This document shows positions 1,438-24,088 of a stretch of DNA of 64,000 nt, in pieces. Each line of letters opens with the position of its first letter. The stretch's first letter is position 1. This DNA comes from an uncultured Rhodospirillaceae bacterium (GTDB lineage: Bacteria; Pseudomonadota; Alphaproteobacteria; SP197), in assembly GCA_964530335.1 (NCBI GenBank), contig CAZGYG010000006.1, positions 2,451 through 66,450 of the forward strand, given 5' to 3'. The position numbers were made by a program, and so were the translations under genes. The notes below the pieces were generated by a model. That model ran no database searches. It was not told the DNA's origin and was given only the letters and a program-made list of their open reading frames with translations.

Positions 1438-2577
1438 CTAGAGCAGGCGGCGCTGGGGCGAGCGCAGCCAGCGGCGCAAGAGCGGGCTGGTCGCCCGGAG
1501 CACGATCGCCGCGTAGACCGCGGCCACGAGCCCGGCCCAGGCGAGCGTCCACGCCGGCCACGCGAGCGCCAGCACGGCGGGAACCCCGATCAACGCCAGA
1601 TAGCAGACCAGCACCCAGCGCGGCGCCATGCGGCGCAGCAGGAAATGGTGCAAGTGGTGCTTGTCCGGGTCGAACGGCGAGCGGCGCGACGCGACGCGCC
1701 ACACCATGAGCCTGAGGCAATCGATCACGGGCACCAGGAACCACAGCGCCACGACATCGGCGGGCAAGTTGGCGGGCGCCCGGTTGTAGGCGTAGATCGC
1801 GACGATCGCGACCACCATGGTGATGGCGTAGGTGCCCGAATCGCCCAGGAACAGCCGGCCCGAAAGATTGAAGCCGAGCGTGATCGCGAGCGCCGCGGCG
1901 AAGGCGGCGAGCAGCGGCGCGAGTTCGGGCGGACCGTACACGACCAGGAGCAGGCTCCAGATCAGGCAGGCGCCGAGCGCCAGACCGTTGATGCCGTCGG
2001 CCATGTTCATGGCGTTGACCAGCCCGATCAGGCACAGCGCCGTGAACAGCAACGAAAACGGGTAGAGCCCGAGCGGCGAGGAGGCGAAGGTGAAGCGCAG
2101 CCCGGTGACGACGAACTGGTCGGGCGCGATGTTCAGCACCACCAGCGCGATGACCGTGGCCAGCGCGAGCCGGTACTTGGGCTTGATGTCGTGCTGGTCG
2201 TCGACGAGCCCGAGGACGAAGAACGCCGCCGCCGTGACCGCGAGCGCCGGGTAGAGCCGATCGTCCGGGTTGTCGAGCGCGAGCGCGCCGCAATAGACGA
2301 CGAAGGGCGCCACGATCGCCAGGCCGCCGACCAGCGGCGTCGGCCGGGCGTGGCGCTTGCGCCGGCCGTCCGGGTGATCGACGACGCGGAGCACGTTCGC
2401 GATGGTCGGCGCCGAGAGGCACAGCAACAGGGTGAGCCCGCACAGGAAGACGAAATCGACGACGAACCGGGCCCAGATACCGTCCGAGAGTCCCGAAGCG
2501 ATCAGCGTCACGGCAGTGTCATGGCGTCGCCCGCCAGCCCCCCGTCCGGTCGTGCCACAGGGCCCGCCAAAAGACAA
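1438..2577 (-). CDS. Glycosyltransferase family 4 (MraY/WecA/WbpL-like) undecaprenyl-phosphate sugar-1-phosphate transferase
   Basis: Polytopic membrane protein with the GT4 signature VNAMNMADGINGLALG and multiple TM helices. The start codon is uncertain and may be an internal start. Confidence 0.8.
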   Translation of the reverse strand: MSFGGPCGTTGRGAGGRRHDTAVTLIASGLSDGIWARFVVDFVFLCGLTLLLCLSAPTIANVLRVVDHPDGRRKRHARPTPLVGGLAIVAPFVVYCGALALDNPDDRLYPALAVTAAAFFVLGLVDDQHDIKPKYRLALATVIALVVLNIAPDQFVVTGLRFTFASSPLGLYPFSLLFTALCLIGLVNAMNMADGINGLALGACLIWSLLLVVYGPPELAPLLAAFAAALAITLGFNLSGRLFLGDSGTYAITMVVAIVAIYAYNRAPANLPADVVALWFLVPVIDCLRLMVWRVASRRSPFDPDKHHLHHFLLRRMAPRWVLVCYLALIGVPAVLALAWPAWTLAWAGLVAAVYAAIVLRATSPLLRRWLRSPQRRLL

Positions 2578-2602
2578 GTTCGCGGTTGGTCCGCCGCGAC
2601 GG

Positions 2603-3493
2603 TCAAGGCAGCGGCCCGGGCCACGGGTCGTCGCTCAGACCGAGCACCCAATAGCCCAGCAGCCCGACAATTTCGTGGGTGGCGATCTTAATGGCTTCCA
2701 GATTCTCGAGCGGCGCGAAACCGAGCCCGAGGGCCGACGAGCCAAGAGTCCGGTAGTCCACCGGGTAGGGCACGACGTTCCAGCCGACGGCGCGAAAGCA
2801 GCCGACCGCACGCGGCATATGCGCGGCCGAGGTCACCAGCAGCCAGGTCTCGGCCGGCGCGGGCTGGACCAGCGCCTTCGACAACCGCGCATTCTCGGCC
2901 GTATTGCGCGCTTGGTCCTCGAACACGATGCGCTCGAGCGGGCCGCCGAGCTCGGCCACCAGGCGACGGGCGAACACGGCTTCCCCCGGTGCATCGACGA
3001 AGGCCGAGCTCGAGCCGCCGGTGACGACCAGCCGCGCCTGGGGATAGCGGCGGGCGAGGGTCAGAAGCGCCGCCACGCGGTCGGCCGCGTCGTTCAGCTC
3101 CACCGTGCCGTGGGTCACGCTCGCGCCGACGTTCGTGAACCCGCTCAGCACGATGACCCCGTCGGCCCGGTCCGGCAGCGGAGCCATCGGAAACCGCTCC
3201 TCGAGCCGGGCGAGCAACGCCGGTCCCACGGGAACGATCGCCAGGCCGAGGGCGAGCCCGACGGTCGCCGTGACGATCCCTCGCCCGAGCGCGCGTCGCC
3301 CGGTCCACAGCAGCGCGGCGCCCAGCGCCAGGAACGCCAGGCCGATGGTCGCCGGGTCGATGGCGTAGGCGGCAAGCTTGGACAGGACGAACACGGGACC
3401 GGGCTGGCGGAATTCGGCGGCCACGATATCACGGCGCCGGCGGCTCGGCCGGAACGTTGACCTCGACAGGGCCGGGCGGGCTCGGTAAGCCAT
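2603..3493 (-). CDS. DUF218 / YdcF-ElyC-family envelope protein
   Basis: N-terminal TM helices followed by a DUF218-like domain (GVIVLSGF...VVTGGSS...ENTAENAR). Start taken at MAYRARP; the longer 2603..3520 ORF would overlap the divergent flippase start. Confidence 0.6.
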   Translation of the reverse strand: MAYRARPALSRSTFRPSRRRRDIVAAEFRQPGPVFVLSKLAAYAIDPATIGLAFLALGAALLWTGRRALGRGIVTATVGLALGLAIVPVGPALLARLEERFPMAPLPDRADGVIVLSGFTNVGASVTHGTVELNDAADRVAALLTLARRYPQARLVVTGGSSSAFVDAPGEAVFARRLVAELGGPLERIVFEDQARNTAENARLSKALVQPAPAETWLLVTSAAHMPRAVGCFRAVGWNVVPYPVDYRTLGSSALGLGFAPLENLEAIKIATHEIVGLLGYWVLGLSDDPWPGPLP

Positions 3494-3512
3494 GCGCGGT
3501 CGGGAGGCAGCG

Positions 3513-4736
3513 ATGAACAAGCCCGGACGTCCCAGTTACGGCGCGCGCCTGGGCATCGGCGTGATCCACGCGCTGTTCCCGCTCGTCCCCCTCGTTTACC
3601 TGACGCGCGTGCTCAGCCCCGCCGAGCTCGGCTTCATCGGCCTGACGCTCGCCGGCACCATGATCGTCCAGGACCTCATCGCGCTGCGGGCCGAATCCGC
3701 GGTCGGCGGGGCCGAAGGCCCGAACGGGCCGCGTGCCACGCTCGATCGCGGCGTGGTGCTGGGCGTCGCGCTCGGCGGCTTGGCTATCGCGGGCGCCGCG
3801 TGCGCCGTGCTCGCCTTCGCCTTGCCGCGCTTTTCCGCCGTCTTCGCCCTGGCGCCGACGCTGGCGGCGATTCGCTTCATCGGCATGCTCGAATTGGCCG
3901 GGGTCACCGACGAAGGCCGGGCCAACCGGCACGGGGTCATTACCGCCGTGGGCAACCTGACCGGCTTCGCCTTGACCATCGGCTTCATCTCGGCGCTGGA
4001 GCTCAGTTGGGCGGGGCGCATCCTGGCGCTCGTCGTCGCCGAGGGCGGGGTCGTCGCCGTGCGCCTGGCGGTGCTCGCGCGTCTGGGCAAGCCGCACCGG
4101 GTCGCCTGGGATGCGGCGCGCGGCCGGACCCTGATCCACGAAGCAAGGCCCGAGCTGATCACCAGCTTGCTCGCCGTCGCGCTCGATCACGCCTCGCGCC
4201 TGGTCGCGCTGGGCGCGCTCGGCATGGCCCAGGTCGGGTTCCTGGTGGTCGCCTACCGGGTCGGCGCCGCCGTCCCGGCGATCAACAAGTCGCTGGCCTT
4301 CGCGCTCGGTCCCCGGGTCTGGGCCCGGATGGACGCGGGCGACCTGCGGGGCCTGGTGCGGCTGCACCTGGTCTATGGCGGCGCCGTGCTGGCCCTCGCG
4401 CTCGTCGTGGCGGGCGCCTGCCTGATCGCCACGGACGACGTGTTCGGCGCGGCCTTCGCAGTCGCGGCGCCCGCCGCCGCCGCTGTCTCGGTTGGGTACG
4501 GCTTCAAGGGGTTCCAGCGCGTGGCCGGGTTCATGCGCACCCGGCTCGGCATGCCCGCGCCCGACCCGTGGCATCAGGCGCTCGCCGTCGCGCTCGTGGT
4601 CGCGGTGGGTCTCGGGTTAGCGCCGAGCCTGGGCGTCACGGGGCTCGCGTTGGCGACGGCGCTGGGGCTCGCGACGGTGGCCGTGCTTTCGGTCGTGGGC
4701 GCCTACCGGGAATTCCTGGGCCGGCGCGGTCAGTAG
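3513..4736 (+). CDS. Polysaccharide/O-antigen flippase (Wzx/RfbX-like, MOP superfamily)
   Basis: About 12-TM protein with a typical Wzx N-terminus (GARLGIGVIHALFPLVPLVYLTRVLSPAELGFIGL). RBS gggagg lies before the ATG at 3513. Confidence 0.75.
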   Translation: MNKPGRPSYGARLGIGVIHALFPLVPLVYLTRVLSPAELGFIGLTLAGTMIVQDLIALRAESAVGGAEGPNGPRATLDRGVVLGVALGGLAIAGAACAVLAFALPRFSAVFALAPTLAAIRFIGMLELAGVTDEGRANRHGVITAVGNLTGFALTIGFISALELSWAGRILALVVAEGGVVAVRLAVLARLGKPHRVAWDAARGRTLIHEARPELITSLLAVALDHASRLVALGALGMAQVGFLVVAYRVGAAVPAINKSLAFALGPRVWARMDAGDLRGLVRLHLVYGGAVLALALVVAGACLIATDDVFGAAFAVAAPAAAAVSVGYGFKGFQRVAGFMRTRLGMPAPDPWHQALAVALVVAVGLGLAPSLGVTGLALATALGLATVAVLSVVGAYREFLGRRGQ

Positions 4737-5881
4737 GCCAGCGACTTCTGGATCGTGAAGGTCGCGCGGGCCAGGATTTCGGCGATGCGCGGCCCGCTGT
4801 GGCCGTCGCCGTAAAGCCCATCGCGCGGGTAACCGCCGTGGGCGAGCTGGGTTTCGATCGCCTTCTTGATGGCGTGCCGGTCGTAACCGACGTCGATCAC
4901 GTTGCCGGCGCGCTCGCGCCGGTTCTGCCGCGTCCCGATGTTGACCGCCGGCACCCCGAGAAACGCCCCTTCGCGAATCGCGCTCGACGAATTGCCGATC
5001 AGGCACGCCGAGGAGGCGATGACCCGGGCGTAGTCCTCGACCGCGAAGTTGCGGAACAGGTGGATCGGGAACCCCGGGTGCCGCGCGACGAAAAGCCGCA
5101 GCCCCTTCGAGGTGCTGTCCGAGCCGGCGTCCACGTTGGGCCACAGCCAGACCGTCGGCATGGCCAGGGCATGGATCGCCGCCAGCGTCTCCTCGATCTG
5201 GTGGAAGGCATCGCGGTACTCGGTCGTCACCGGATGCTGGAGCACGACGACGAAAGGCTTCGAGGCATCGAGCGAGGCGCCGGCGCCGCCGTGGGCATCG
5301 AAGAAATCCGCCGGCAGCCCGCGCTCGATGCCGACCAGCGGATCGAGCGACGGACATCCCGTGACGTGGACGGTTTCCGGCGCCTCGCCCATGCGGATCA
5401 GCCGCTCGCGCGACAGCTCGGTGGTCGCGAAATGCAGGTGCGCGAGCTTGCTGATGGCGTGGCGCACGCTTTCGTCGATCGAGCCGGTCACCTCGCCGCC
5501 CTGAGTGTGCGCGAGGGGAATGTTCATGTACGAGGCGGCGACCGCCGTGGCGAGCGTCTCGAACCGGTCGGCCACCGTCAGCACCACGTCGGGCTTGAGA
5601 TTCTCGAACTGGGTTGTCAGCTCGATGATGCCGAGCCCGGTCGACTTGGCCATGGTCGCCGGGTTTTCGCCCTCGATGATCGAGTAGACCCTGGCGGCGG
5701 GCTGGAAGCCGTCGCGCTCGATGACCTCGACAGCCGAACCGTAGCGGAACAGCAACGCCGAAGCGCCGACGATGAGCACGAGCTCGAGGTCGGGACGATC
5801 GCGCACCGCGGCCATGACCGACTTGATGCGGCCGTAGTTCGCCCGGCTGGCGACGACGACGCAGATCTTGCGGCGCGCCAT
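4730..5881 (-). CDS. neuC: UDP-N-acetylglucosamine 2-epimerase (hydrolysing), NeuC/LegG-like
   Basis: 383 aa with strong similarity to the NeuC family (ICVVVASRANYGRIKSVM...PDVVLTVADRFETLATAVAASYMNIPLAHTQGGEVTGSIDE...). Immediately upstream of a NeuB-like synthase. Confidence 0.85.
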   Translation of the reverse strand: MARRKICVVVASRANYGRIKSVMAAVRDRPDLELVLIVGASALLFRYGSAVEVIERDGFQPAARVYSIIEGENPATMAKSTGLGIIELTTQFENLKPDVVLTVADRFETLATAVAASYMNIPLAHTQGGEVTGSIDESVRHAISKLAHLHFATTELSRERLIRMGEAPETVHVTGCPSLDPLVGIERGLPADFFDAHGGAGASLDASKPFVVVLQHPVTTEYRDAFHQIEETLAAIHALAMPTVWLWPNVDAGSDSTSKGLRLFVARHPGFPIHLFRNFAVEDYARVIASSACLIGNSSSAIREGAFLGVPAVNIGTRQNRRERAGNVIDVGYDRHAIKKAIETQLAHGGYPRDGLYGDGHSGPRIAEILARATFTIQKSLAY

Positions 5882-5885
5882 GGCC

Positions 5886-6935
5886 TCAGGGTTCCAAGTC
5901 GTCCTGGACGAGCACGCGGTCGGCGGGCACGTCGCGAGCGAGCCGGCGGCCGATGCAAAGGCCGAGCTCGCGGGCCGGGATGCCGTCCGCCGGCTTCTTC
6001 GTCGTCAGCATGGCGGCGTCGAGCACGGTGCCACGCCGCTGCGGCCGCACCAGGGCGACGCTCTTGTTGAACAGGGCGCGCACGTGGGCGAGTTCGGCGT
6101 TCGCCGCGTCCTTGTCGACCGGGTGCGTGTCGATCTCGTGAATGGCGTCGCGCGCCTCGGCCAGCGTGCGCAACTGGTCGAGCGTGAGCGATGACGGCAC
6201 GTCGGGCCCGAACATGGCCTTGTGGAACGTGGCGTGAACCTCGATCACCGCGGCGCCCCGCGCCATGGCGGCGAGCGCCGGATAAACCGTGCCGCTGTGG
6301 TCGGACAGCCCGACCGGGGCGCCAAACCGCCGCATCTGGTCCATGACGTTGAGCCCGACGGCGGCCAGCGGCGTGGGGTAGCGGCTGGTGCACTGGAGCA
6401 CCGCGAAAGCCACGCCCGCGCGGTCGAAGCGCGCGACCGCGGCCGCGATCTCGTCCCAGCCGCTCGCCCCTGTGCTGAGCAGGATCGGCTTGCCCGAGCC
6501 GATCATGGCGTCGAGCAGCGGCGGATTGCTGATCTCGCCCGAGGCGACCTTCCAGGCGCCGATGCCGAGGGCTTGCAGCACTTCGAACGCGGCCATGGAG
6601 AACGGCGACGACAGGAACACGAGCCCGCGCTCCTCGGCGTGGGACTTAAGCCCGGCCCATTGCTCGGGCGTGAACTCCATGCGCTTCCAGTAGTCGTAGC
6701 GAGTGGCGTCCGCGTAGGAGAACTTCACCCGGAAGGGTTCGGCCGGGGTCGATTCGGCGTGCGCGATGTGGGTCTGGAACTTCACCGCGTCGGCGCCCGC
6801 CGCGGCGAAGGCGTCGACGAAGCTGTGGGCGAGCCCGAGCGAGCCGTCGTGGCTCTGCGCCACCTCGGCGATCACGAAGCACTTGGCCCCGGCGCCAACG
6901 GTCCGGCCGGCCACGCTGAAGCGATCGACGGGCAC
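5886..6935 (-). CDS. neuB: N-acetylneuraminate / nonulosonic acid synthase (NeuB/LegI/PseI family)
   Basis: 349 aa with a NeuB TIM-barrel (KCFVIAEVAQSHDGSL...GADAVKFQT...LSTGASGWDEI) and a C-terminal SAF/antifreeze-like domain. Confidence 0.85.
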   Translation of the reverse strand: MPVDRFSVAGRTVGAGAKCFVIAEVAQSHDGSLGLAHSFVDAFAAAGADAVKFQTHIAHAESTPAEPFRVKFSYADATRYDYWKRMEFTPEQWAGLKSHAEERGLVFLSSPFSMAAFEVLQALGIGAWKVASGEISNPPLLDAMIGSGKPILLSTGASGWDEIAAAVARFDRAGVAFAVLQCTSRYPTPLAAVGLNVMDQMRRFGAPVGLSDHSGTVYPALAAMARGAAVIEVHATFHKAMFGPDVPSSLTLDQLRTLAEARDAIHEIDTHPVDKDAANAELAHVRALFNKSVALVRPQRRGTVLDAAMLTTKKPADGIPARELGLCIGRRLARDVPADRVLVQDDLEP

Positions 6936-7010
6936 AATGCCCTCCGCGAACGACTCGGTTCACTCTTGGCCCGCCTTCGCCGATGGGTCAAGGCGCTCGG
7001 CCGCGCTCGA

Positions 7011-7110
7011 CCCCCGCCCGGGCGCGCGGGCGCGCGTCCCATCGCCGAGCCCGTCCTTGCCCCACCCTCTCACGCCGCTGCTCGCCGGCCTCGCCTCCAT
7101 CTCGGTGCGC
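7011..7110 (+). repeat. Diverged direct-repeat copy A of the upstream region and first about 20 codons of the acyl-CoA synthetase gene (a pseudo-start)
   Basis: cccccgcccgggcgcgcgggcgc (23/23 identical) and atcgccgagcccgtccttgccccaccctctcacgccgctgctcgcc (46/46 identical) are shared with 8029-8140. The copy encodes LPHPLTPLLAG... and terminates after 28 codons. Confidence 0.85.
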
Positions 7111-7281
7111 AGGATCGCCTCGCCCGGACGGATGCCGTAGCCCTCCACCGTCGGCGGGGGCGGCGTCGCGGGCCAGGTCATGGTCAAATGGATTTATTGT
7201 TCCTTGACAACAGTTTGCCGACAGTGGACGGAGCCCCCATGTTTGGGCTACAATGTGGCTCAACATAAGGAGTTCCGGCCC

Positions 7282-7539
7282 ATGAGGACCGTTGTTCGTG
7301 CGCGCATCGATGAGCGGGTGAAGAACGATGCCGCCGCCGTGCTGGCGTCCATCGGGCTTACCGTGTCCGACGCCTTCCGTCTCATGATGGTGCGCATCGC
7401 CACCGAGAAGCGGCTGCCTTTCGAGCCGCTGGTGCCTAATGCGGAGACCATCGAGGCCATGCAGGCCGCCCGGCGCGGCGACGTGGTCACCGTCGGCAGC
7501 GTGGACAACCTGCTGGCGGATCTGAATGCGGACGATTAG
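7282..7539 (+). CDS. dinJ: DinJ/RelB-family type II antitoxin
   Basis: 85 aa (MRTVVRARIDERVKNDAAAVLASIGLTVSDAFRLMMVRIATEKRLPFE) with strong similarity to E. coli DinJ. The locus is locally low in GC. Confidence 0.85.
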   Translation: MRTVVRARIDERVKNDAAAVLASIGLTVSDAFRLMMVRIATEKRLPFEPLVPNAETIEAMQAARRGDVVTVGSVDNLLADLNADD

Positions 7540-7807
7540 ACGCACCACCGCCTTCAAGCGCGACTACAAACGTGAGAAGAAGGGTCGGCATCGCCAGACG
7601 CTCGACGACGAGCTGTCGAAGGCGGTAGGGATGCTCGCCGCCGACGAGCCGCTTCCGCAGCGTTATCACGACCATCTCTTGGCCGGGGAATGGAACGATC
7701 ATCGGGATTGCCACATCAAGCCCGATCTGGTGGTGATTTACCGGAAGCCGGGCGACGAGACGCTCGTTCTGGTGCGCCTCGGTTCTCACAGCGAACTTGG
7801 GGTGTGA
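7526..7807 (+). CDS. yafQ: YafQ/RelE-family mRNA interferase toxin
   Basis: 93 aa (…FKRDYKREKKGRHRQ…LPQRYHDHLLAGEWNDHRDCHIKPDLVVIYR) with strong similarity to E. coli YafQ. Overlaps dinJ by 14 nt. Confidence 0.85.
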   Translation: MRTIRRTTAFKRDYKREKKGRHRQTLDDELSKAVGMLAADEPLPQRYHDHLLAGEWNDHRDCHIKPDLVVIYRKPGDETLVLVRLGSHSELGV

Positions 7808-7849
7808 CCGCTGAGGTCCCCTACCTGTAAGCTCCCGCCGCCGGATTGA

Positions 7850-8029
7850 GGACATATCTCCTCTCCGTTCAAGCGCCGGCGCCAATCCCTCGCCGCGGCC
7901 GATCTTGCGGGACATCAGGCTCTCCATCCGCTCGACGAAAACATCGATCAGCACCTCGCCCGCGGGCCCACGCCGGGTCTCGGTGCGGGCCTGGGTGTTG
8001 GGGACGGTGTTGTAGACGGTCGGCCGCAC
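7850..8029 (-). pseudogene. Possible N-terminal remnant (about 60 codons) of an unidentified gene, lying between the relE stop and repeat copy B
   Basis: The minus-strand ORF begins MRPTVYNTVPNTQARTETRRGPAGEVLIDVFVERMESLMSRKIGRGEG and then runs antisense into relE. Only the first about 60 codons lie outside relE. No family recognised. Confidence 0.2.
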
Positions 8030-8140
8030 CCCCGCCCGGGCGCGCGGGCGCTATAGTCCCGCGTCGCATCGCCGAGCCCGTCCTTGCCCCACCCTCTCAC
8101 GCCGCTGCTCGCCCCCGGCTCGATCGCCTTCGTCGGCGCC
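8029..8140 (+). repeat. Direct-repeat copy B: the genuine upstream region and 5' end of the acyl-CoA synthetase gene
   Basis: See 7011-7110. Contains the TTG start at 8084 (MPHPLTPLLAPGSIAFVGASP). Confidence 0.85.
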
Positions 8141-10153
8141 TCGCCGCGCGAGGGTTCGCTCGGCCACACCATGCTGCGCGTGATCCGGCACGGCGGCTAT
8201 CGCGGCACGATTCACCCGGTCAATCCGAACTACGACCGCATCGAGGACCTGCCCTGCCACCCCTCGCTCGCGGCGATCGGCGAACCGGTCGACCTGGCCG
8301 TGCTGGCCGTCGCGAACAGCCGCATCGAGGCCGCGCTCGAGGAGGCGATCGCCGCCGGGGCCCGCGCCGCCACGATCTTCGCCAGCGGTTATTTGGAGAA
8401 CGACGGCGATCCGCCGCTATTGTCCCGGCTGCGCGAGCTCGCCCGGGCGGCAGGCCTGCCGGTGTGCGGCGGCAACGCCATGGGCTTCTACAACCTGGAC
8501 GCCCGGACGCGGGTGTGCGGGTATTTGAACACGGTCGGCCCCGAGCAGGGCGGCATCGCGTTCATCACCCATTCGGGCTCGGTGTTCAGCGCGTTAGCCC
8601 ACAGCGATCCGCGGCTTGCCTACAACCTGGTCGTGTCGTCGGGCCAGGAGATCGCCACCACCGTTGCGGGCTACGTCGATTACGCGCTCGACCAGGAGAC
8701 CACCCGGGTCATCGGGCTTTTCCTCGAGACGGTGCGCGACGCGCCCGGGTTCCTCGCCGCCGCCGCCAGGGCGCTTGAGCGCCAGGTTCCCATCGTAGTG
8801 CTCAAGGTGGGGGTGGCGGCGGAATCCGCGCGCCTCGCGGTCAGCCATTCCGGAGCCATCGCCGGCGACGACGCCGCCTACGAGGCGGCGTTTGACCGCT
8901 ACGGCATCGTCCGAGTCGCCAGCCTGGACGAGCTGGCCGCGACGCTTCTGCTGCTCGGCCAGCCGCGCCGCGCCCGCGCCGGCGGGCTCGCCGCCATGCT
9001 CGATTCGGGCGGCGAGCGCGGCATGTTGATCGACCTGGCCCAGCGCCACGCCGTACCCTTCGCGGCGATCGCGCCCGCGACCCGCGCCCGGCTCGCCGCC
9101 CGGCTCGATTATGGGCTCGAGCCGGTCAACCCGCTCGACGCCTGGGGCACCGGCAACGACTTCGAAGGGGTATTGCGCGACTGCTTCCTGGCGCTGGCCG
9201 AGGACAAGGACACCGCCGCCGCGGTCATCTTCGCCGACATCCGCGATGCGGGATTCCTGTGCGGTCCCTACGAGCGGGTGCTGCGCCACGTCCACGCCAC
9301 GGTCGGCAAGCCGATCGCGCTGGCGCCCAACTTCTCGGGCGTCGCCCACGGCGAGGTGGCGCTGCGGCTTACCCGCGCCGGCATCCCCGTGCTCGACGGC
9401 ACCGAGAACGCGCTGGCCGCGATCGGGCATCTGTTCCGCCTGCGCGATGCCTGGGCGCGCCCCGAGCCGACGCCGCCGCAAGCCGACGCCGCCGCCGTCG
9501 CGCGCTGGAACGCGCGGCTCGGCAACGGCACGCTCGACGAGGCGGAGGCCCTGACCCTGCTCGCCGAGTTCGGGGTGCCGGCGTCGCCGACCGAGGTGAT
9601 CGACAGCCCCGAGGCCGCGCTCGCCGCCGCCGAACGCTTCGGCTTCCCGGTCGCGCTTAAGACCGCGCAACCGGGGATCGCGCACAAGTCGGACGTCGAT
9701 GGCGTGCGGCTGGGATTGGCCGACGGCGAGGCGCTGATCGCCGCCTACGTCGAATTGGCCGCGCGGCTGGGCCGGCGCATGGTCGTGGCGCCCATGGCCG
9801 GGCCGGGCGTCGAGCTCGCGTTTGGATTGGTGACCGACGCGCAGTTCGGCACGCTGGTCATGGTCGGCGCCGGGGGTACGCTGATCGAGGTGCTGCGTGA
9901 TCGCGTGGTCGCCTTGCCGCCGTTCGACCGCGCGACCGCACGGCGGCTGATCGACCGGCTCGCGCTTCGCCACTTGCTGGGGGGTGTGCGCGGCCGGCCG
10001 CCGGCCGATGTCGAGGCGCTGGCCGAGGCGTTCGCGCGGTTCTCGGTGCTGGCGGCCACTCTCGGCCCCCGCGTGGCCGAGATCGACGTCAACCCGGTGA
10101 TCTGCGGGCCACGAGGGCCCCTCGCCGTCGACGCCCTGGTGGTCGCCCGCTAA
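8084..10153 (+). CDS. Acyl-CoA synthetase, NDP/ADP-forming (acetate--CoA ligase [ADP-forming] family; CoA-binding, SCS-like and ATP-grasp domains)
   Basis: 689 aa with an N-terminal CoA-binding domain (IAFVGASPREGSLGHTML), a central ligase-CoA domain and a C-terminal ATP-grasp domain (GFPVALKTAQPGIAHKSDVDGVRLGL). Confidence 0.8.
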   Translation: MPHPLTPLLAPGSIAFVGASPREGSLGHTMLRVIRHGGYRGTIHPVNPNYDRIEDLPCHPSLAAIGEPVDLAVLAVANSRIEAALEEAIAAGARAATIFASGYLENDGDPPLLSRLRELARAAGLPVCGGNAMGFYNLDARTRVCGYLNTVGPEQGGIAFITHSGSVFSALAHSDPRLAYNLVVSSGQEIATTVAGYVDYALDQETTRVIGLFLETVRDAPGFLAAAARALERQVPIVVLKVGVAAESARLAVSHSGAIAGDDAAYEAAFDRYGIVRVASLDELAATLLLLGQPRRARAGGLAAMLDSGGERGMLIDLAQRHAVPFAAIAPATRARLAARLDYGLEPVNPLDAWGTGNDFEGVLRDCFLALAEDKDTAAAVIFADIRDAGFLCGPYERVLRHVHATVGKPIALAPNFSGVAHGEVALRLTRAGIPVLDGTENALAAIGHLFRLRDAWARPEPTPPQADAAAVARWNARLGNGTLDEAEALTLLAEFGVPASPTEVIDSPEAALAAAERFGFPVALKTAQPGIAHKSDVDGVRLGLADGEALIAAYVELAARLGRRMVVAPMAGPGVELAFGLVTDAQFGTLVMVGAGGTLIEVLRDRVVALPPFDRATARRLIDRLALRHLLGGVRGRPPADVEALAEAFARFSVLAATLGPRVAEIDVNPVICGPRGPLAVDALVVAR

Positions 10154-20137: not shown

Positions 20138-21178
20138 ATGCCGCGGGCGTTTCGATTTCCCGGACTTCTCGCCATCGTTACGGTGGGTTTGTTCCTGAGT
20201 TTCGCCGCCGCCGCGGGACCGCTCGATGACGGGGTCGCGGCGTACGAGCAGGGCGACTATGCGACGGCGGTGGAGCTTTGGCGCCCGCTGGCCGAGCAAG
20301 GCGACTCCTGGGCCCAGTTCAACCTCGGCTACATGTACGACAACGGCCTTGGCGTGACGCAGGACGCCGCCGAGGCGGCGCGCTGGTACCGGATGGCGGC
20401 CGACCAGGGGCACGCCGGTGCTCAAACCAGCCTCGGCTACATGTACTACGACGGCCGGGGCGTGGCACAGGACGATGCCGAAGCGGCGCGGCTCTACCGC
20501 CTGGCGGCCGAGCAGGGCGTCGCCTTGGCCCAGAACAACCTCGGTTACATGTACCAGAACGGCTGGGGCGTACCTCAGGACGACACCGAGGCGGTGAACT
20601 GGTACCGCCAGGCGGCCGAGAAGGGTGACGCCGACGCCCAGAACAACCTTGGCATCATGTACGATGCCGGCCGGGGCGTGCCACAGGACGACGCCGAGGC
20701 AGTGAACTGGTACCGCCTGGCGGCCGATCAGGGGCACGCCGGCGCCCAAGGCAATCTCGGCGCCATGTACGCCAACGGCCGGGGCGTGGCGCAGGACGAA
20801 GCCGAAGCGGTGCGGCTTTACCGCCTGGCGGCCGACCAGGGGCACTCCGGCGCCCAGTACAACCTCGGCCTCGCGTACGACAGCGGCCGGGGCGTGGCGC
20901 AGGACTTCGTCGAGGCCGCGCACTGGTACCGCATGGCTGCCGACCGGGGCGACGGCTATGCCCAGGTCAACCTCGGAGTCATGTACCTGAACGGCGAAGG
21001 CGTAGAGCAGGATCTCGTTCAGGCCCATCTCTGGTTCGACCTGGCGGCGGCGGGGTTTGCGCCGGGCGAGGACCAGGATTTCGCGCTGGAGAACCGCGAC
21101 GGGGTCGCGGCCGAGATGAACCCGGATCAGGTGGCGGAGGCGCAGCGGCTGGCGGCCGAGTGGCAACCGCTACCGTGA
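20138..21178 (+). CDS. Sel1-repeat (SLR/TPR-like) protein, secreted; 7 Sel1 repeats
   Basis: N-terminal signal peptide (MPRAFRFPGLLAIVTVGLFLSFAAAAG) followed by 7 x 36-aa Sel1 repeats (...A..WYR.AA.QG.A.AQ.NLG.MY..G.GV.QD...) and a conserved C-terminal tail (...LENRDGVAAEMNPDQVAEAQRLAAEWQPLP). Confidence 0.85.
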   Translation: MPRAFRFPGLLAIVTVGLFLSFAAAAGPLDDGVAAYEQGDYATAVELWRPLAEQGDSWAQFNLGYMYDNGLGVTQDAAEAARWYRMAADQGHAGAQTSLGYMYYDGRGVAQDDAEAARLYRLAAEQGVALAQNNLGYMYQNGWGVPQDDTEAVNWYRQAAEKGDADAQNNLGIMYDAGRGVPQDDAEAVNWYRLAADQGHAGAQGNLGAMYANGRGVAQDEAEAVRLYRLAADQGHSGAQYNLGLAYDSGRGVAQDFVEAAHWYRMAADRGDGYAQVNLGVMYLNGEGVEQDLVQAHLWFDLAAAGFAPGEDQDFALENRDGVAAEMNPDQVAEAQRLAAEWQPLP

Positions 21179-21277: not shown

Positions 21278-22747
21278 ATGTCGTGGATGCTGCGATTCCC
21301 TAGGCCGGTCGTCGTCGCGGCGGCCCTCCTCCTCGGATTTCCCGCGACCGCGGGACCGCTCGAGGACGGGGTCGCGGCGTATGAGCAGGGCGACTATGCG
21401 ACGGCGGTGGAGCTTTGGCGCCCGCTGGCCGAGCAAGGCGACTCCTGGGCCCAGTTCAACCTCGGCTACATGTACGAGTACGGCCTGGGCGTGACGCAGG
21501 ACTATGCCGAGGCGGCGCGGCTCTACCGCCTGGCGGCCGACCAGGGGAACGACGCGGCTCAAGACAACCTCGGCTACCTGTACGAGAGCGGCCTGGGCGT
21601 GACGCAGGGCCATGCCGAGGCGGCGCGGCTTTATCGCCTGGCGGCCGAGCAAGGGAACGCCAACGCCCAAGACAACCTCGGCTACCTGTACGAGAACGGC
21701 CTGGGAGTGCCACAGGACTATGCCGAGGCGGTGAATTGGTACCGCCAGGCGGCCGAGCAGGGCGACGCCGACGCTCAAGACAGTCTCGGCTACATGTACC
21801 AATACGGCCTCGGCGTGGCGGAGGACGACAACGAAGCGGTGAACTGGTACCGCCTGGCGGCCGAGCAGGGGCTCGCCAATGCCCAGTTCGACCTCGGCTA
21901 CATGTACGAGAGCGGTCTGGGCGTGGCGCAGGACCTTGCCGAGGCGGCGCGGCTTTATCGCCTGGCGGCCGAGCAAGGGGACGCCGACGCCCAGAACAAC
22001 CTCGGAGTCATGTACAGCACCGGCCGGGGCGTGCCGCTGGACGACGTCGAGGCGGTACGGCTCTACCGCCTGGCGGCCGAGCAGGGGGATGCGGGAGCCC
22101 AGAACAATCTTGGCTACATGTACGACAGGGGCGAGGGCGTGCCGGAGGACGACGCCGAGGCGGTGCGGCTCTATAGCCTGGCGGCCGACCAGGGGTACGC
22201 CGAAGCCCAGAATAACCTCGGCCTCATGTACGACTACGGCCGGGGCGTGCCGCTGGACGACGCCGAGGCGGTGAACTGGTACCGCCAGGCGGCCGAGCAG
22301 GGGTTCGCCGAAGCCCAAAACAACCTCGGCTACATGTACGCCCACGGCGAGGGCGTGGCGGAGGACGCCACCGAGGCGGTGCGCTGGTACCGCCTGGCGG
22401 CCGAGCAGGGCGACGCCTGGGCCCAAAACAATCTCGGCTGGATGTACGAAACCGGTGATGGCGTGGCGGAAGACGACGCCGAGGCGGTGCGTTGGTACCG
22501 CCAAGCGGCCGAGCAGGGACACGGCAAGGCCCAGAGCAACCTCGGCTACTTGTACCAGAACGGCGAGGGCACAGAGGTGGACCTCGTTCAGGCCCACCTC
22601 TGGTACGACCTCGCGGCGTCGGGGTTTGCGCCGGGCGAGGACCTGGATTTCGCGCTGGAGAACCGCGACGCGGTCGCGGCCGAGATGACCCCGGATCAGT
22701 TGGCGGAAGCGCAGCGGCTGGCGGCCGAGTGGCAGCCCGTGGAGTGA
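21278..22747 (+). CDS. Sel1-repeat protein, secreted; 11 Sel1 repeats (tandem paralogue)
   Basis: RBS aaggaggagg, signal peptide (MSWMLRFPRPVVVAAALLLGFPATAG), 11 Sel1 repeats, and the same C-terminal tail as the upstream paralogue. Confidence 0.85.
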   Translation: MSWMLRFPRPVVVAAALLLGFPATAGPLEDGVAAYEQGDYATAVELWRPLAEQGDSWAQFNLGYMYEYGLGVTQDYAEAARLYRLAADQGNDAAQDNLGYLYESGLGVTQGHAEAARLYRLAAEQGNANAQDNLGYLYENGLGVPQDYAEAVNWYRQAAEQGDADAQDSLGYMYQYGLGVAEDDNEAVNWYRLAAEQGLANAQFDLGYMYESGLGVAQDLAEAARLYRLAAEQGDADAQNNLGVMYSTGRGVPLDDVEAVRLYRLAAEQGDAGAQNNLGYMYDRGEGVPEDDAEAVRLYSLAADQGYAEAQNNLGLMYDYGRGVPLDDAEAVNWYRQAAEQGFAEAQNNLGYMYAHGEGVAEDATEAVRWYRLAAEQGDAWAQNNLGWMYETGDGVAEDDAEAVRWYRQAAEQGHGKAQSNLGYLYQNGEGTEVDLVQAHLWYDLAASGFAPGEDLDFALENRDAVAAEMTPDQLAEAQRLAAEWQPVE

Positions 22748-22897: not shown

Positions 22898-24088
22898 TTG
22901 ATCCCTTTCGACCCCTTCAAGGAAGGCCTTGCGGCGTTCAAGCGTGGCGACTATGCGGCGGCGGCGGAGCTGTGGCGTCCGCTGGCCGAGCAGGGTATGG
23001 CCGAAGCCCGGTACTACCTCGCCGTGCTGTACGACAACGGCAAGGGCGTAGCACAAGACGACGCCGAGGCGGTGCGGCTCTACCGCCTGGCGGCCGATCA
23101 GGGGGATGCCGCCGCCCAAACCAACCTCGGTACGATGTACCTCGACGGCCGGGGCGTGCCACGGGACGACGCCGAGGCAGCGCGGCTCTACCGCCTGGCG
23201 GCCGACCAGGGGTTGGCCAAAGCCCAATACAACCTAGGGCTCATGTACTGGAACGGCAGGGGCATGCCAAAGGACGACGCCGAGGCGGCGCGCTGGAGCC
23301 GCCTGGCGTCCGACCGGGGGATGGCCGAAGCGCAGTACAACCTAGGGCTCATGTACCGCAACGGCTGGGGCGTGCCGCGCGACGACGCCGAGGCGGCGCG
23401 CTTGTTCCGCCTGGCGGCCGACCAGGGGGACGCCGAAGCCCAGTACAACCTCGGGCTCATGTACCGGAACGGCAAGGGCGTGCCACGGGACGACGCCGAG
23501 GCGGCGCGCTGGTTCCGCCTGGCGGCCGACCAGGGGATGGCCCAAGCCCAGTTCAAACTCGGCTTCATGTACGACAACGGCAGGGGCGTGCCACGGGACG
23601 ACGCCGAGGCGGTGCGGCTCTACCGCCTGGCGGCCGAGCAGGGGTACGCCGGTGCCCAGTACAACCTCGGGCTCATGTATGACAACGGCGAGGGCGTGCC
23701 AATGGACGACGCCGAGGCGGTGCGGCTCTACCGCCTTGCGGCCGAACAGGGGATGGCCCAAGCCCAGTTCAACCTCGGGCTCATGTACCGCAACGGCGAG
23801 GGCGTGCCAATGGACGACGCCGAGGCGGCGCGCTGGTTCCGCCTTGCGGCCAATCAGGGGATGGCCGAAGCCCAGTTCAACCTCGCCGTCAGGTACCAGA
23901 ACGGCGAAGGCGTAGAGCAGGATCTCGTCCAGGCCCATCTCTGGTTCGACCTGGCGGCGTCGGAGTTCCCGCCGGGCGAGGACCAGGATCTCGCGCTGGA
24001 GAACCGCAACGCGGTCGCGGCCGAGATGACCCCGGATCAGGTGGCGGAGGCGCAGCGGCTGACGGCCGAGTGGCAGCCCGTGCCGTGA
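22898..24088 (+). CDS. Sel1-repeat protein; 9 repeats, no signal peptide, TTG start (tandem paralogue, possibly 5'-truncated)
   Basis: Begins LIPFDPFKEGLAAFKRGDYAAAAELWRPLAEQG, exactly where the mature domain of paralogues 1 and 2 begins. The in-frame stop at 22808 leaves no room for a signal peptide. Carries the same C-terminal tail. Confidence 0.7.
   Translation: MIPFDPFKEGLAAFKRGDYAAAAELWRPLAEQGMAEARYYLAVLYDNGKGVAQDDAEAVRLYRLAADQGDAAAQTNLGTMYLDGRGVPRDDAEAARLYRLAADQGLAKAQYNLGLMYWNGRGMPKDDAEAARWSRLASDRGMAEAQYNLGLMYRNGWGVPRDDAEAARLFRLAADQGDAEAQYNLGLMYRNGKGVPRDDAEAARWFRLAADQGMAQAQFKLGFMYDNGRGVPRDDAEAVRLYRLAAEQGYAGAQYNLGLMYDNGEGVPMDDAEAVRLYRLAAEQGMAQAQFNLGLMYRNGEGVPMDDAEAARWFRLAANQGMAEAQFNLAVRYQNGEGVEQDLVQAHLWFDLAASEFPPGEDQDLALENRNAVAAEMTPDQVAEAQRLTAEWQPVP

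Follow-up and report, generated by a model that had tools for sequence, protein, structure and literature searches.

It is already known that toxin-antitoxin (TA) modules occur as morons in prophages and that TA pairs are found in chromosomal spacers. Prophage morons are independent transcription units that are inserted between conserved phage genes (PMC3594210). The arrival of chromosomal TA pairs at intergenic sites without a visible mobility gene is usually left unexplained. Here a dinJ/relB-yafQ pair is described that lies between the genes of a neuB-family sugar-acid synthase and an ADP-forming acyl-CoA synthetase (hereafter the ligase) of an uncultured Rhodospirillaceae bacterium (assembly GCA_964530335.1, contig CAZGYG010000006.1, positions 2,451 to 66,450). 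The window, by which the whole stretch of DNA that was analysed is meant, comprises 64,000 nucleotides. A phage-derived TA fragment has almost certainly been inserted there in an ancestrally empty spacer, with duplication of the target. A natural scar of duplication-insertion with an identifiable donor context and with empty sites is less commonly documented.

The TA pair is an ordinary member of the DinJ/RelB-YafQ type II systems, and shares gene order, gene overlap and Pfam families with dinJ-yafQ of Escherichia coli and HP0892/HP0894 of Helicobacter pylori. Whereas the proteins are ordinary, the setting is not, the window pair being enclosed by stubs of phage tail genes and by a duplicated chromosomal target. 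As in a prophage moron, the relB-yafQ unit is flanked by the tape-measure gene and the tail gene after it (gene N) and runs antisense to them. In the window, however, the unit is outside any phage, about 200 bp plus about 100 bp of tail genes came along with it, and it is now located in a chromosomal promoter spacer. In lambda Red 'Dup-In' recombineering, a linear fragment with swapped end homologies gives an insert between direct repeats of the target, which corresponds to ends-in (insertion-type) integration with gap repair (PMC5389514). The window shows the same product, an insert flanked by copies of a target segment of which the parent has one, and its donor ends are apparently swapped too. 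Short duplications of the engineered kind are stable, Dup-Ins of 100-210 bp being lost at no more than the background frequency (PMC5389514). Whereas homology extensions designed into the cassette ends and lambda Red serve in the engineered cases (PMC5389514), the event in the window would have been natural, with imperfect chance patches of 13-17 nt. Double illegitimate recombination and SPDIR in Acinetobacter baylyi likewise join foreign DNA at short microhomologies without a site-specific enzyme (bioRxiv 10.1101/2023.11.22.568220), but SPDIR replaces short patches and makes microindels, whereas the window gained 941 bp and a duplication of 77-86 bp.

The insertion consists of the following elements, given in window coordinates:

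7010-7086, plus strand: repeat copy 1, a dead duplicate of the ligase promoter region and the first 10 codons, without the 9-bp TATAGTCCC.
7087-8027, no strand assigned: the 941-bp insert, a tail-module fragment of a D3-like prophage with a TA moron; absent from the empty sites.
7087-7187, minus strand: stub of gene N (virion structural), its first approximately 34 codons, M(TTG)TMTWPATPPPPTVEGYGIRPGEAILRTEMEARP, starting at 7187.
7188-7281, plus strand: TA promoter region with a promoter-like TGGACG-18-TACAAT at 7225-7254 and an AAGGAG Shine-Dalgarno sequence at 7267-7272.
7282-7539, plus strand: relB/dinJ antitoxin gene, 85 amino acids, intact (Pfam RelB PF04221, 3.4e-18).
7526-7807, plus strand: yafQ toxin gene, 93 amino acids, intact (Pfam YafQ_toxin PF15738, 2.3e-31).
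7821-8027, minus strand: tape-measure stub, the last approximately 67 codons and the stop, convergent with yafQ across a 13-nt gap.
8028-8113, plus strand: repeat copy 2, the working ligase promoter region (GCTATAGTCCCGCGT) and ligase codons 1-10.

A repeat search and a MAFFT alignment both reproduced the direct repeat, with 77 bp in copy 1 and 86 bp in copy 2. Two blocks are identical between the copies, the 24-mer ACCCCCGCCCGGGCGCGCGGGCGC (7010-7033 and 8028-8051) and the 46-mer ATCGCCGAG...CTGCTCGCC (7041-7086 and 8068-8113), and for either block two matches were obtained in 0 of 100 shuffles. Seventy-six of the 77 aligned bases are equal, which amounts to 99% identity outside the indel and 88% with the gap counted. 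The single substitution (7039 C versus 8066 G) sits in copy 2, and the 9-bp TATAGTCCC occurs in copy 2 only. Similarity drops off abruptly at 7086/8113 and at 7010/8028. An earlier, sequence-only reading of this DNA had recognized both identical blocks, but it had extended the repeat to about 110 bp (7011-7110 and 8029-8140) and had put its overall identity at about 85%, and these values have to be replaced by those given here. It was right that copy 2 holds the TTG start of the 689-amino-acid gene, at 8084, and that copy 1 has a pseudo-start (LPHPLTPLLAG...*). This TTG, at 7057, runs into the insert and meets a stop at 7140. The 9-bp TATAGTCCC contains a -10-like box and is present in copy 2 and in the empty sites of the related contigs L179, L170 and L180. 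Because the box is found in all empty sites, copy 1 must have lost the 9 bp after the duplication. The duplication is young, not fresh. When the 46-mer and the 24-mer were scanned against the 64-kb window, no third copy of the repeat was found, nor was there a further copy of the tail-gene stubs or the TA genes in the window. A gene caller had placed a 73-amino-acid 'hypothetical protein' (P0132) at 6960-7187 on the minus strand; this open reading frame (ORF) consists of the gene-N stub and the antisense of copy 1 and is a chimeric annotation artefact, not a gene.

The insert resembles phage DNA. Window positions 7083-8022 are collinear with metagenome contig L176 over 944 bp and positions 7073-8020 with viral contig L260 over 956 bp, at 73% identity in both cases. 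Read on the minus strand, the order is the 3' end of a tape-measure gene, relB-yafQ in antisense and the 5' end of the next tail gene, and both flanks of the TA pair show strong third-position GC on that strand. The gene-N stub is 81-87% identical in amino acids to the N-termini of proteins P0133-P0137, has a GC content at third codon positions (GC3) of 0.97 in frame and aligns with orf21 of phage D3; its full-length homologues belong to phrog_384, 'virion structural protein'. The tape-measure stub, which ends in a TAG stop (7823-7821), matches the extreme C-termini of proteins of 450-997 amino acids, with 75-85% identity to P0126-P0131. These homologues are annotated as PHROG 'tail length tape measure protein' and carry Pfam Tape_meas_lam_C; GC3 of the stub is 0.9-1.0 in frame. 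A 5-nt tandem duplication, TCTCC/TCTCC (plus strand, 7857-7866), shifts the tape-measure frame just before the natural ...AAGAYR* end, so that the stub is a decaying pseudogene fragment. A tblastn search with the tape-measure stub against plasmids gave nothing significant. What had been taken for an N-terminal fragment of about 60 codons from an unidentified gene is the C-terminal end of a phage tape-measure gene, which covers approximately 67 codons and is read on the minus strand from 8027 to 7821. The view that the cargo was a TA cassette held for the TA pair itself; the cassette is not a bare one, the gene-N stub (7187 to 7087) having been missed. By these alignments the 941-bp insert comes from the interior of a prophage tail module and includes a TA moron.

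In Pseudomonas phage D3 the tape-measure gene and gene N overlap by 4 nt. The IMG/VR loci of this phage group numbered 83 (about 81 distinct viral contigs), and in 55 of them the tape-measure gene abuts gene N, while 28 (26 distinct) have 48-941 bp in between. In four distinct viral contigs a relB-yafQ pair lies in antisense exactly between the two tail genes, at the same spacing as in the window (613-637 bp). Other contigs have parDE (about 5) or assorted small or AT-rich ORFs at this junction (IMG/VR L189-L325). The junction of tape-measure gene and gene N in D3-like phages is therefore a moron hot spot. On L176 (500-2480; also on L172-L178) two antisense TA cassettes, relB-yafQ and then parDE, are stacked at this junction, with a 79-amino-acid fusion ORF, P0125, in the middle. 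P0125 is composed of the first 36 codons of gene N and the last 44 of the tape-measure gene, and the locus contains direct repeats of 137 bp and 112 bp. L172 has, in place of the left side, a TA-rich island beside a Mu-like transposase. When the two stubs of the window are concatenated, with the gene-N stub ahead of the tape-measure stub, they match P0125 over 97% of its length, and 7087-8027 join in frame. A circular permutation, that is, a 941-bp circle opened in a gene 'X', was considered and rejected, as P0125 itself fuses two phage genes; no permutation is needed because phage D3, L176 and 55 viral loci share the order of the window, tape-measure gene and then gene N. P0134 was likewise discarded as an independent break at the same gene-N codon, being merely a frameshifted gene N.

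The dinJ-yafQ cassette named by the sequence-only reading was borne out by Pfam, both domain scores exceeding the gathering scores. The two genes are on the same strand with the antitoxin first and overlap by 14 nt. Among PDB structures the relatives of the toxin are HP0892 and E. coli YafQ. In a BLASTP comparison with E. coli YafQ the window toxin is 35% identical, and its H/H/D/H residues align with H50, H63, D67 and H87, the catalytic residues of E. coli YafQ. The phage-borne copies on the four viral contigs are 81-84% (RelB) and 71-73% (YafQ) identical in amino acids, and the window genes are equal in length to the phage versions. At the DNA level many conjugative plasmids have dinJ-yafQ loci that share about 70% identity with 7239-7811, the homology starting at 7239. 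One promoter-like site, at 7225-7254, was found where 0.2 are expected. The TA pair is intact and probably active. A terminator-like site was found neither between yafQ and the ligase gene nor for the TA unit, and read-through from the putative TA promoter is therefore possible.

The host locus in which the insert resides has the following parts:

5886-6935, minus strand: neuB-family sugar-acid synthase (Pfam NeuB 2.4e-59, plus SAF), the left neighbour of the insertion site.
6936-7009, no strand assigned: neuB-side remnant of the ancestral divergent spacer, unique, with the conserved GGGTCAAGG motif; it aligns with the spacers of L179, L170, L169 and L180.
8084-10153, plus strand: ADP-forming acyl-CoA synthetase, 689 amino acids (Pfam CoA_binding_2, Succ_CoA_lig and ATP-grasp_5).

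An alignment of the start regions indicates that the TTG start of the ligase is homologous to the GTG start of its relatives. Relatives were obtained by homologue searches with neuB and the ligase, followed by look-ups of the genomic context, and show three states of the neuB-ligase spacer:

L179 (metagenome-assembled genome (MAG) GCA_050725795.1), the closest relative, ligase 85% identical in amino acids: spacer empty.
L170, L169 and L180-L187 (at least 19 contigs from many samples), ligase/neuB 72-75% identical: spacer empty.
L007, ligase 78% identical: spacer filled by 2.4 kb of different cargo.
L171, neuB 70% identical: spacer holding a glutathione S-transferase (GST) gene.

On L179 the sequence upstream of neuB, corresponding to window 6963-7035, runs straight into GCTATAGTCCCGCGT and the ligase start. 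In L170 and L180-L187 neuB and the ligase gene are 139 bp apart, and the empty spacer of L169 is similarly short. Altogether, more than 20 contigs besides L179 have the two genes about 140 bp apart and no cargo in the gap. The promoter box GCTATAGTCCCGCGT is kept in the relatives, identically in L179 and also in L170, L180 and L007, and the flanking order, epimerase-neuB on one side and ligase-deacetylase on the other, is common to the window and the relatives. If 7010-8027 are taken out, the window aligns collinearly with L179, L170, L169 and L180 and zero target bases are lost. This shows that the ancestral locus was a neuB gene and an acyl-CoA synthetase gene diverging from about 150 bp. 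The empty sites, which the sequence-only reading had proposed to look for in related genomes, together with the collinear reconstruction support its idea that, on integration of the cargo, a short segment at the 5' end of the target gene was duplicated.

Because empty, 2.4-kb cargo and GST states all occur among the relatives, the neuB-ligase spacer is a site of variable content. The window, L007 and L171 all have their cargo between a GTCAAGG motif and the ligase promoter. The shared position as a sign of a specific attachment (att) site was rejected, as selection can account for it, this being the only dispensable stretch between the two divergent promoters. L007 (MAG Alphaproteobacteria LejiaC_69_14, the closest GTDB genome) has, within its region 2400-6000, a 192-bp direct repeat (3425-3616 and 4429-4620, 93%) that duplicates the neuB 5' end and about 70 bp upstream of it. 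Its second copy is fused in frame to a C-terminal fragment of a putative IS256-like transposase (ORF 4152-4619, from sequence motifs), and an AT-rich gene of 360 amino acids, putatively ParA-like by motif, is next (4732-5814). L007 is a second, independent case of duplication plus insertion at the same spacer. The GST gene of L171 (6945-7930) is without flanking repeats. Contigs L168 and L179, both from MAG GCA_050725795.1, end and begin in the spacer and overlap by just 9 nt (CTCTTGGAC); the assembly is interrupted at this point even though nothing occupies the site.

Public data contain few sequences of this lineage. Scans of genome and metagenome contigs with the ligase gave one useful relative (L007, 78%), the rest being at most 56% identical in amino acids, and exact look-ups of the ligase protein with either start matched no record. 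When clustered at 90% identity, neuB, RelB, YafQ and the epimerase group with this lineage only. An exact-pattern scan of metagenome contigs with a 27-mer from the repeat gave 0 matches, in a collection that lacks the JGI contigs holding the sequence.

No integrase or transposase was found in the insert or among the candidate ORFs of at least 250 amino acids tested in approximately 7 kb of left-hand and 10 kb of right-hand flank, and the repeat search revealed no terminal inverted repeats that pair the insert ends. The insert ends are arbitrary cut points, because the phage coding sequences continue beyond them in real phages. In alignments with several independent phage homologues, the similarity reaches 13-16 nt into the repeats at either edge of the insert. 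At the gene-N junction the phages have GGACCGGCGCGGCAGCGGCG, the window has AGGCC/GGCG-AGCAGCGGCG and the untouched target (copy 2, minus strand) has CCGGG/GGCG-AGCAGCGGCG. At the tape-measure junction, where the patch is weaker, the phages have GCGCCCACGGTGGTGGTGCAGCCGACC and the window has GCGCCC-GGGCGGGGGT/GCGGCCGACC. The patches, which are judged from homologues and weak on the tape-measure side, occur in swapped order in target and donor. That the junctions lie in short patches of donor-target similarity argues for illegitimate, short-homology recombination over the enzyme of a dedicated mobile element. The opposite order of the patches would account for the insert being placed between two copies of 77-86 bp.

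Our preferred explanation, to which we assign a probability of about 0.6, is a single 'duplication-insertion' by short homology, independent of a recombinase, either ends-in or by template switch. The gene-N end (phage ...CCGGCGCGGCAGCGGCG) would have paired inside the ligase 5' end (target minus strand ...GGGGCG-AGCAGCGGCG), and the tape-measure end (phage GCGCCCACGGTGGTGGT/GCAGCCGACC) at a patch about 80 bp upstream (target GCGCCC-GGGCGGGGGT). Joining patches of swapped order would re-copy the intervening 77-86 bp on both sides of the insert. Possible routes are a bridge between two sister chromosomes, gap repair, or replication that switched template to phage DNA and back, with host RecA, end joining or a phage annealing protein as candidate enzymes. 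Several points weigh against such an event. The donor homologues from which the patches were read are only about 73-90% identical to the insert. The patch on the tape-measure side is weak (13/17 with a gap), with only GGT/G being certain, and GC-rich sequences share 9-mers by chance fairly often. In the 64-kb window no resident prophage was seen as a source of the phage DNA, and the activity of the TA pair, the use of its promoter and the stability of the insert are predictions from the sequence. Finally, the present sequence would look no different had a prophage decayed through two deletions at short homologies.

Phage att sites typically form direct repeats by which the end of a gene is rebuilt, as for phage 21/e14 in icd. 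In a decayed D3-like prophage, an integrase would have acted at an attB overlapping the ligase 5' end, copy 1 would be attL and copy 2 attR, and an attP with at least 86 bp of matching sequence would have rebuilt promoter and start. Two later deletions would then have left the TA moron and the tail stubs, loss of the TA pair being toxic. The insert is indeed phage DNA that is bounded, as in phage 21/e14, by direct repeats of which one restores the host gene; TA addiction would explain why this piece survived, and patches of short homology at the junctions are also expected for deletion endpoints. That a repeat completes the interrupted host gene, as copy 2 does, is common to this explanation and to a duplication-insertion. 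However, three events are required and both deletions must end in the short att repeats, and attP would need 86 bp or more nearly identical to this host. In contrast to the described att sites, the repeats rebuild a 5' end and promoter, nearly the whole phage is gone and both phage-side breakpoints abut the repeats; no remnant of an integrase was present among the ORFs tested in the insert and its surroundings. The copies are 99% identical though the region diverges strongly even in the closest relative, which fits duplication in situ better, and no relative has a prophage here, the spacers of L007 and L171 holding unrelated cargo. We therefore regard a decayed prophage as rather unlikely, although it is the strongest of the alternatives.

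A Campbell-type single crossover of a small circle that already held the ligase segment beside the TA fragment would yield exactly the order repeat, insert, repeat, with the perfect blocks of 46 bp and 24 bp. Such a circle must first have gained the host segment by an illegitimate event, which only moves the problem back; a Pfam search detected no replicon or origin functions in the 941 bp, and phage-like similarity that reaches into the repeat at both edges is not predicted, all of which makes the crossover quite improbable. That the flanking repeats were made by the enzyme of a dedicated mobile element is highly improbable, whether a miniature element, an integron cassette or a transposon leaving long target-site duplications is considered. 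An insert between direct target repeats superficially resembles a target-site duplication, and integron cassettes and Tn3-family transposons frequently carry TA pairs (PMC7157771). On the other hand, a transposase or integrase domain and terminal inverted repeats are lacking here, the insert ends fall in coding sequences that continue in real phages, and the 64 kb contain two copies of the repeat and one of the unit. The 77-86 bp also contrast with the fixed-length duplication of 2-15 bp made by transposons and insertion sequences. We know of no target-site duplication that comes near this length. Short-read assemblies can make chimeric joins at repeats, and Logan k-mer contigs do end inside the 46-bp identical block, as is expected at a true repeat. 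JGI contig L001, from another sample, covers 4675-8226 ungapped at 99.8% identity and so includes both copies and the insert, and three further contigs (L002, L003 and L087) cross copy 1. Assembly chimerism, about which the sequence-only reading had been concerned, is thus excluded, and with two copies never arising in shuffles the structure as an assembly artefact or a chance similarity can practically be dismissed.

For the locus itself, the ligase gene would not have survived an insertion at its codon 10. Through the duplication the right-hand side would regain the promoter, the TTG start and the first 10 codons, and because this right copy keeps a complete promoter and start the ligase presumably stays functional. 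The left copy would be a relic, its -10-like box having since been removed by the 9-bp deletion. TA addiction would plausibly retain the insert, aided by the rarity with which repeats of less than 100 bp recombine.

Elsewhere in the window, tandem-repeat arrays with a unit of 108 bp (36 codons) were observed at 20290-20995, 21427-22564 and 22984-23913, with 75-81% matches. Their consensus resembles Sel1/TPR-type repeats (...NLGYMYENGxGVPQDDAEAVRLYRLAAEQGDA...), and the arrays are probably parts of a single large repeat-protein gene or of several such genes.

Knowledge of DinJ-YafQ itself is unchanged by this finding. For annotation practice it is relevant that short-read assemblers break at this repeat. 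With respect to the arrival of TA pairs in chromosomes, the donor context (a tail-module moron), the empty site and both junctions can be read at this locus, and the route suggested by them is one in which short chance similarities suffice and the neighbouring gene is protected by its duplicated promoter and start. It is conceivable, though we hold it doubtful, that the junction of tape-measure gene and gene N in D3-like phages serves as a docking site at which TA cassettes such as relB-yafQ and parDE are swapped and stacked. If true, the conserved ends of the tail genes would be portable homology arms, the 79-amino-acid fusion ORF of L172-L178 and the insert in the window would be outputs of one enzyme-free process of cassette shuffling, and TA modules would escape from phages into chromosomes via duplication-insertion.

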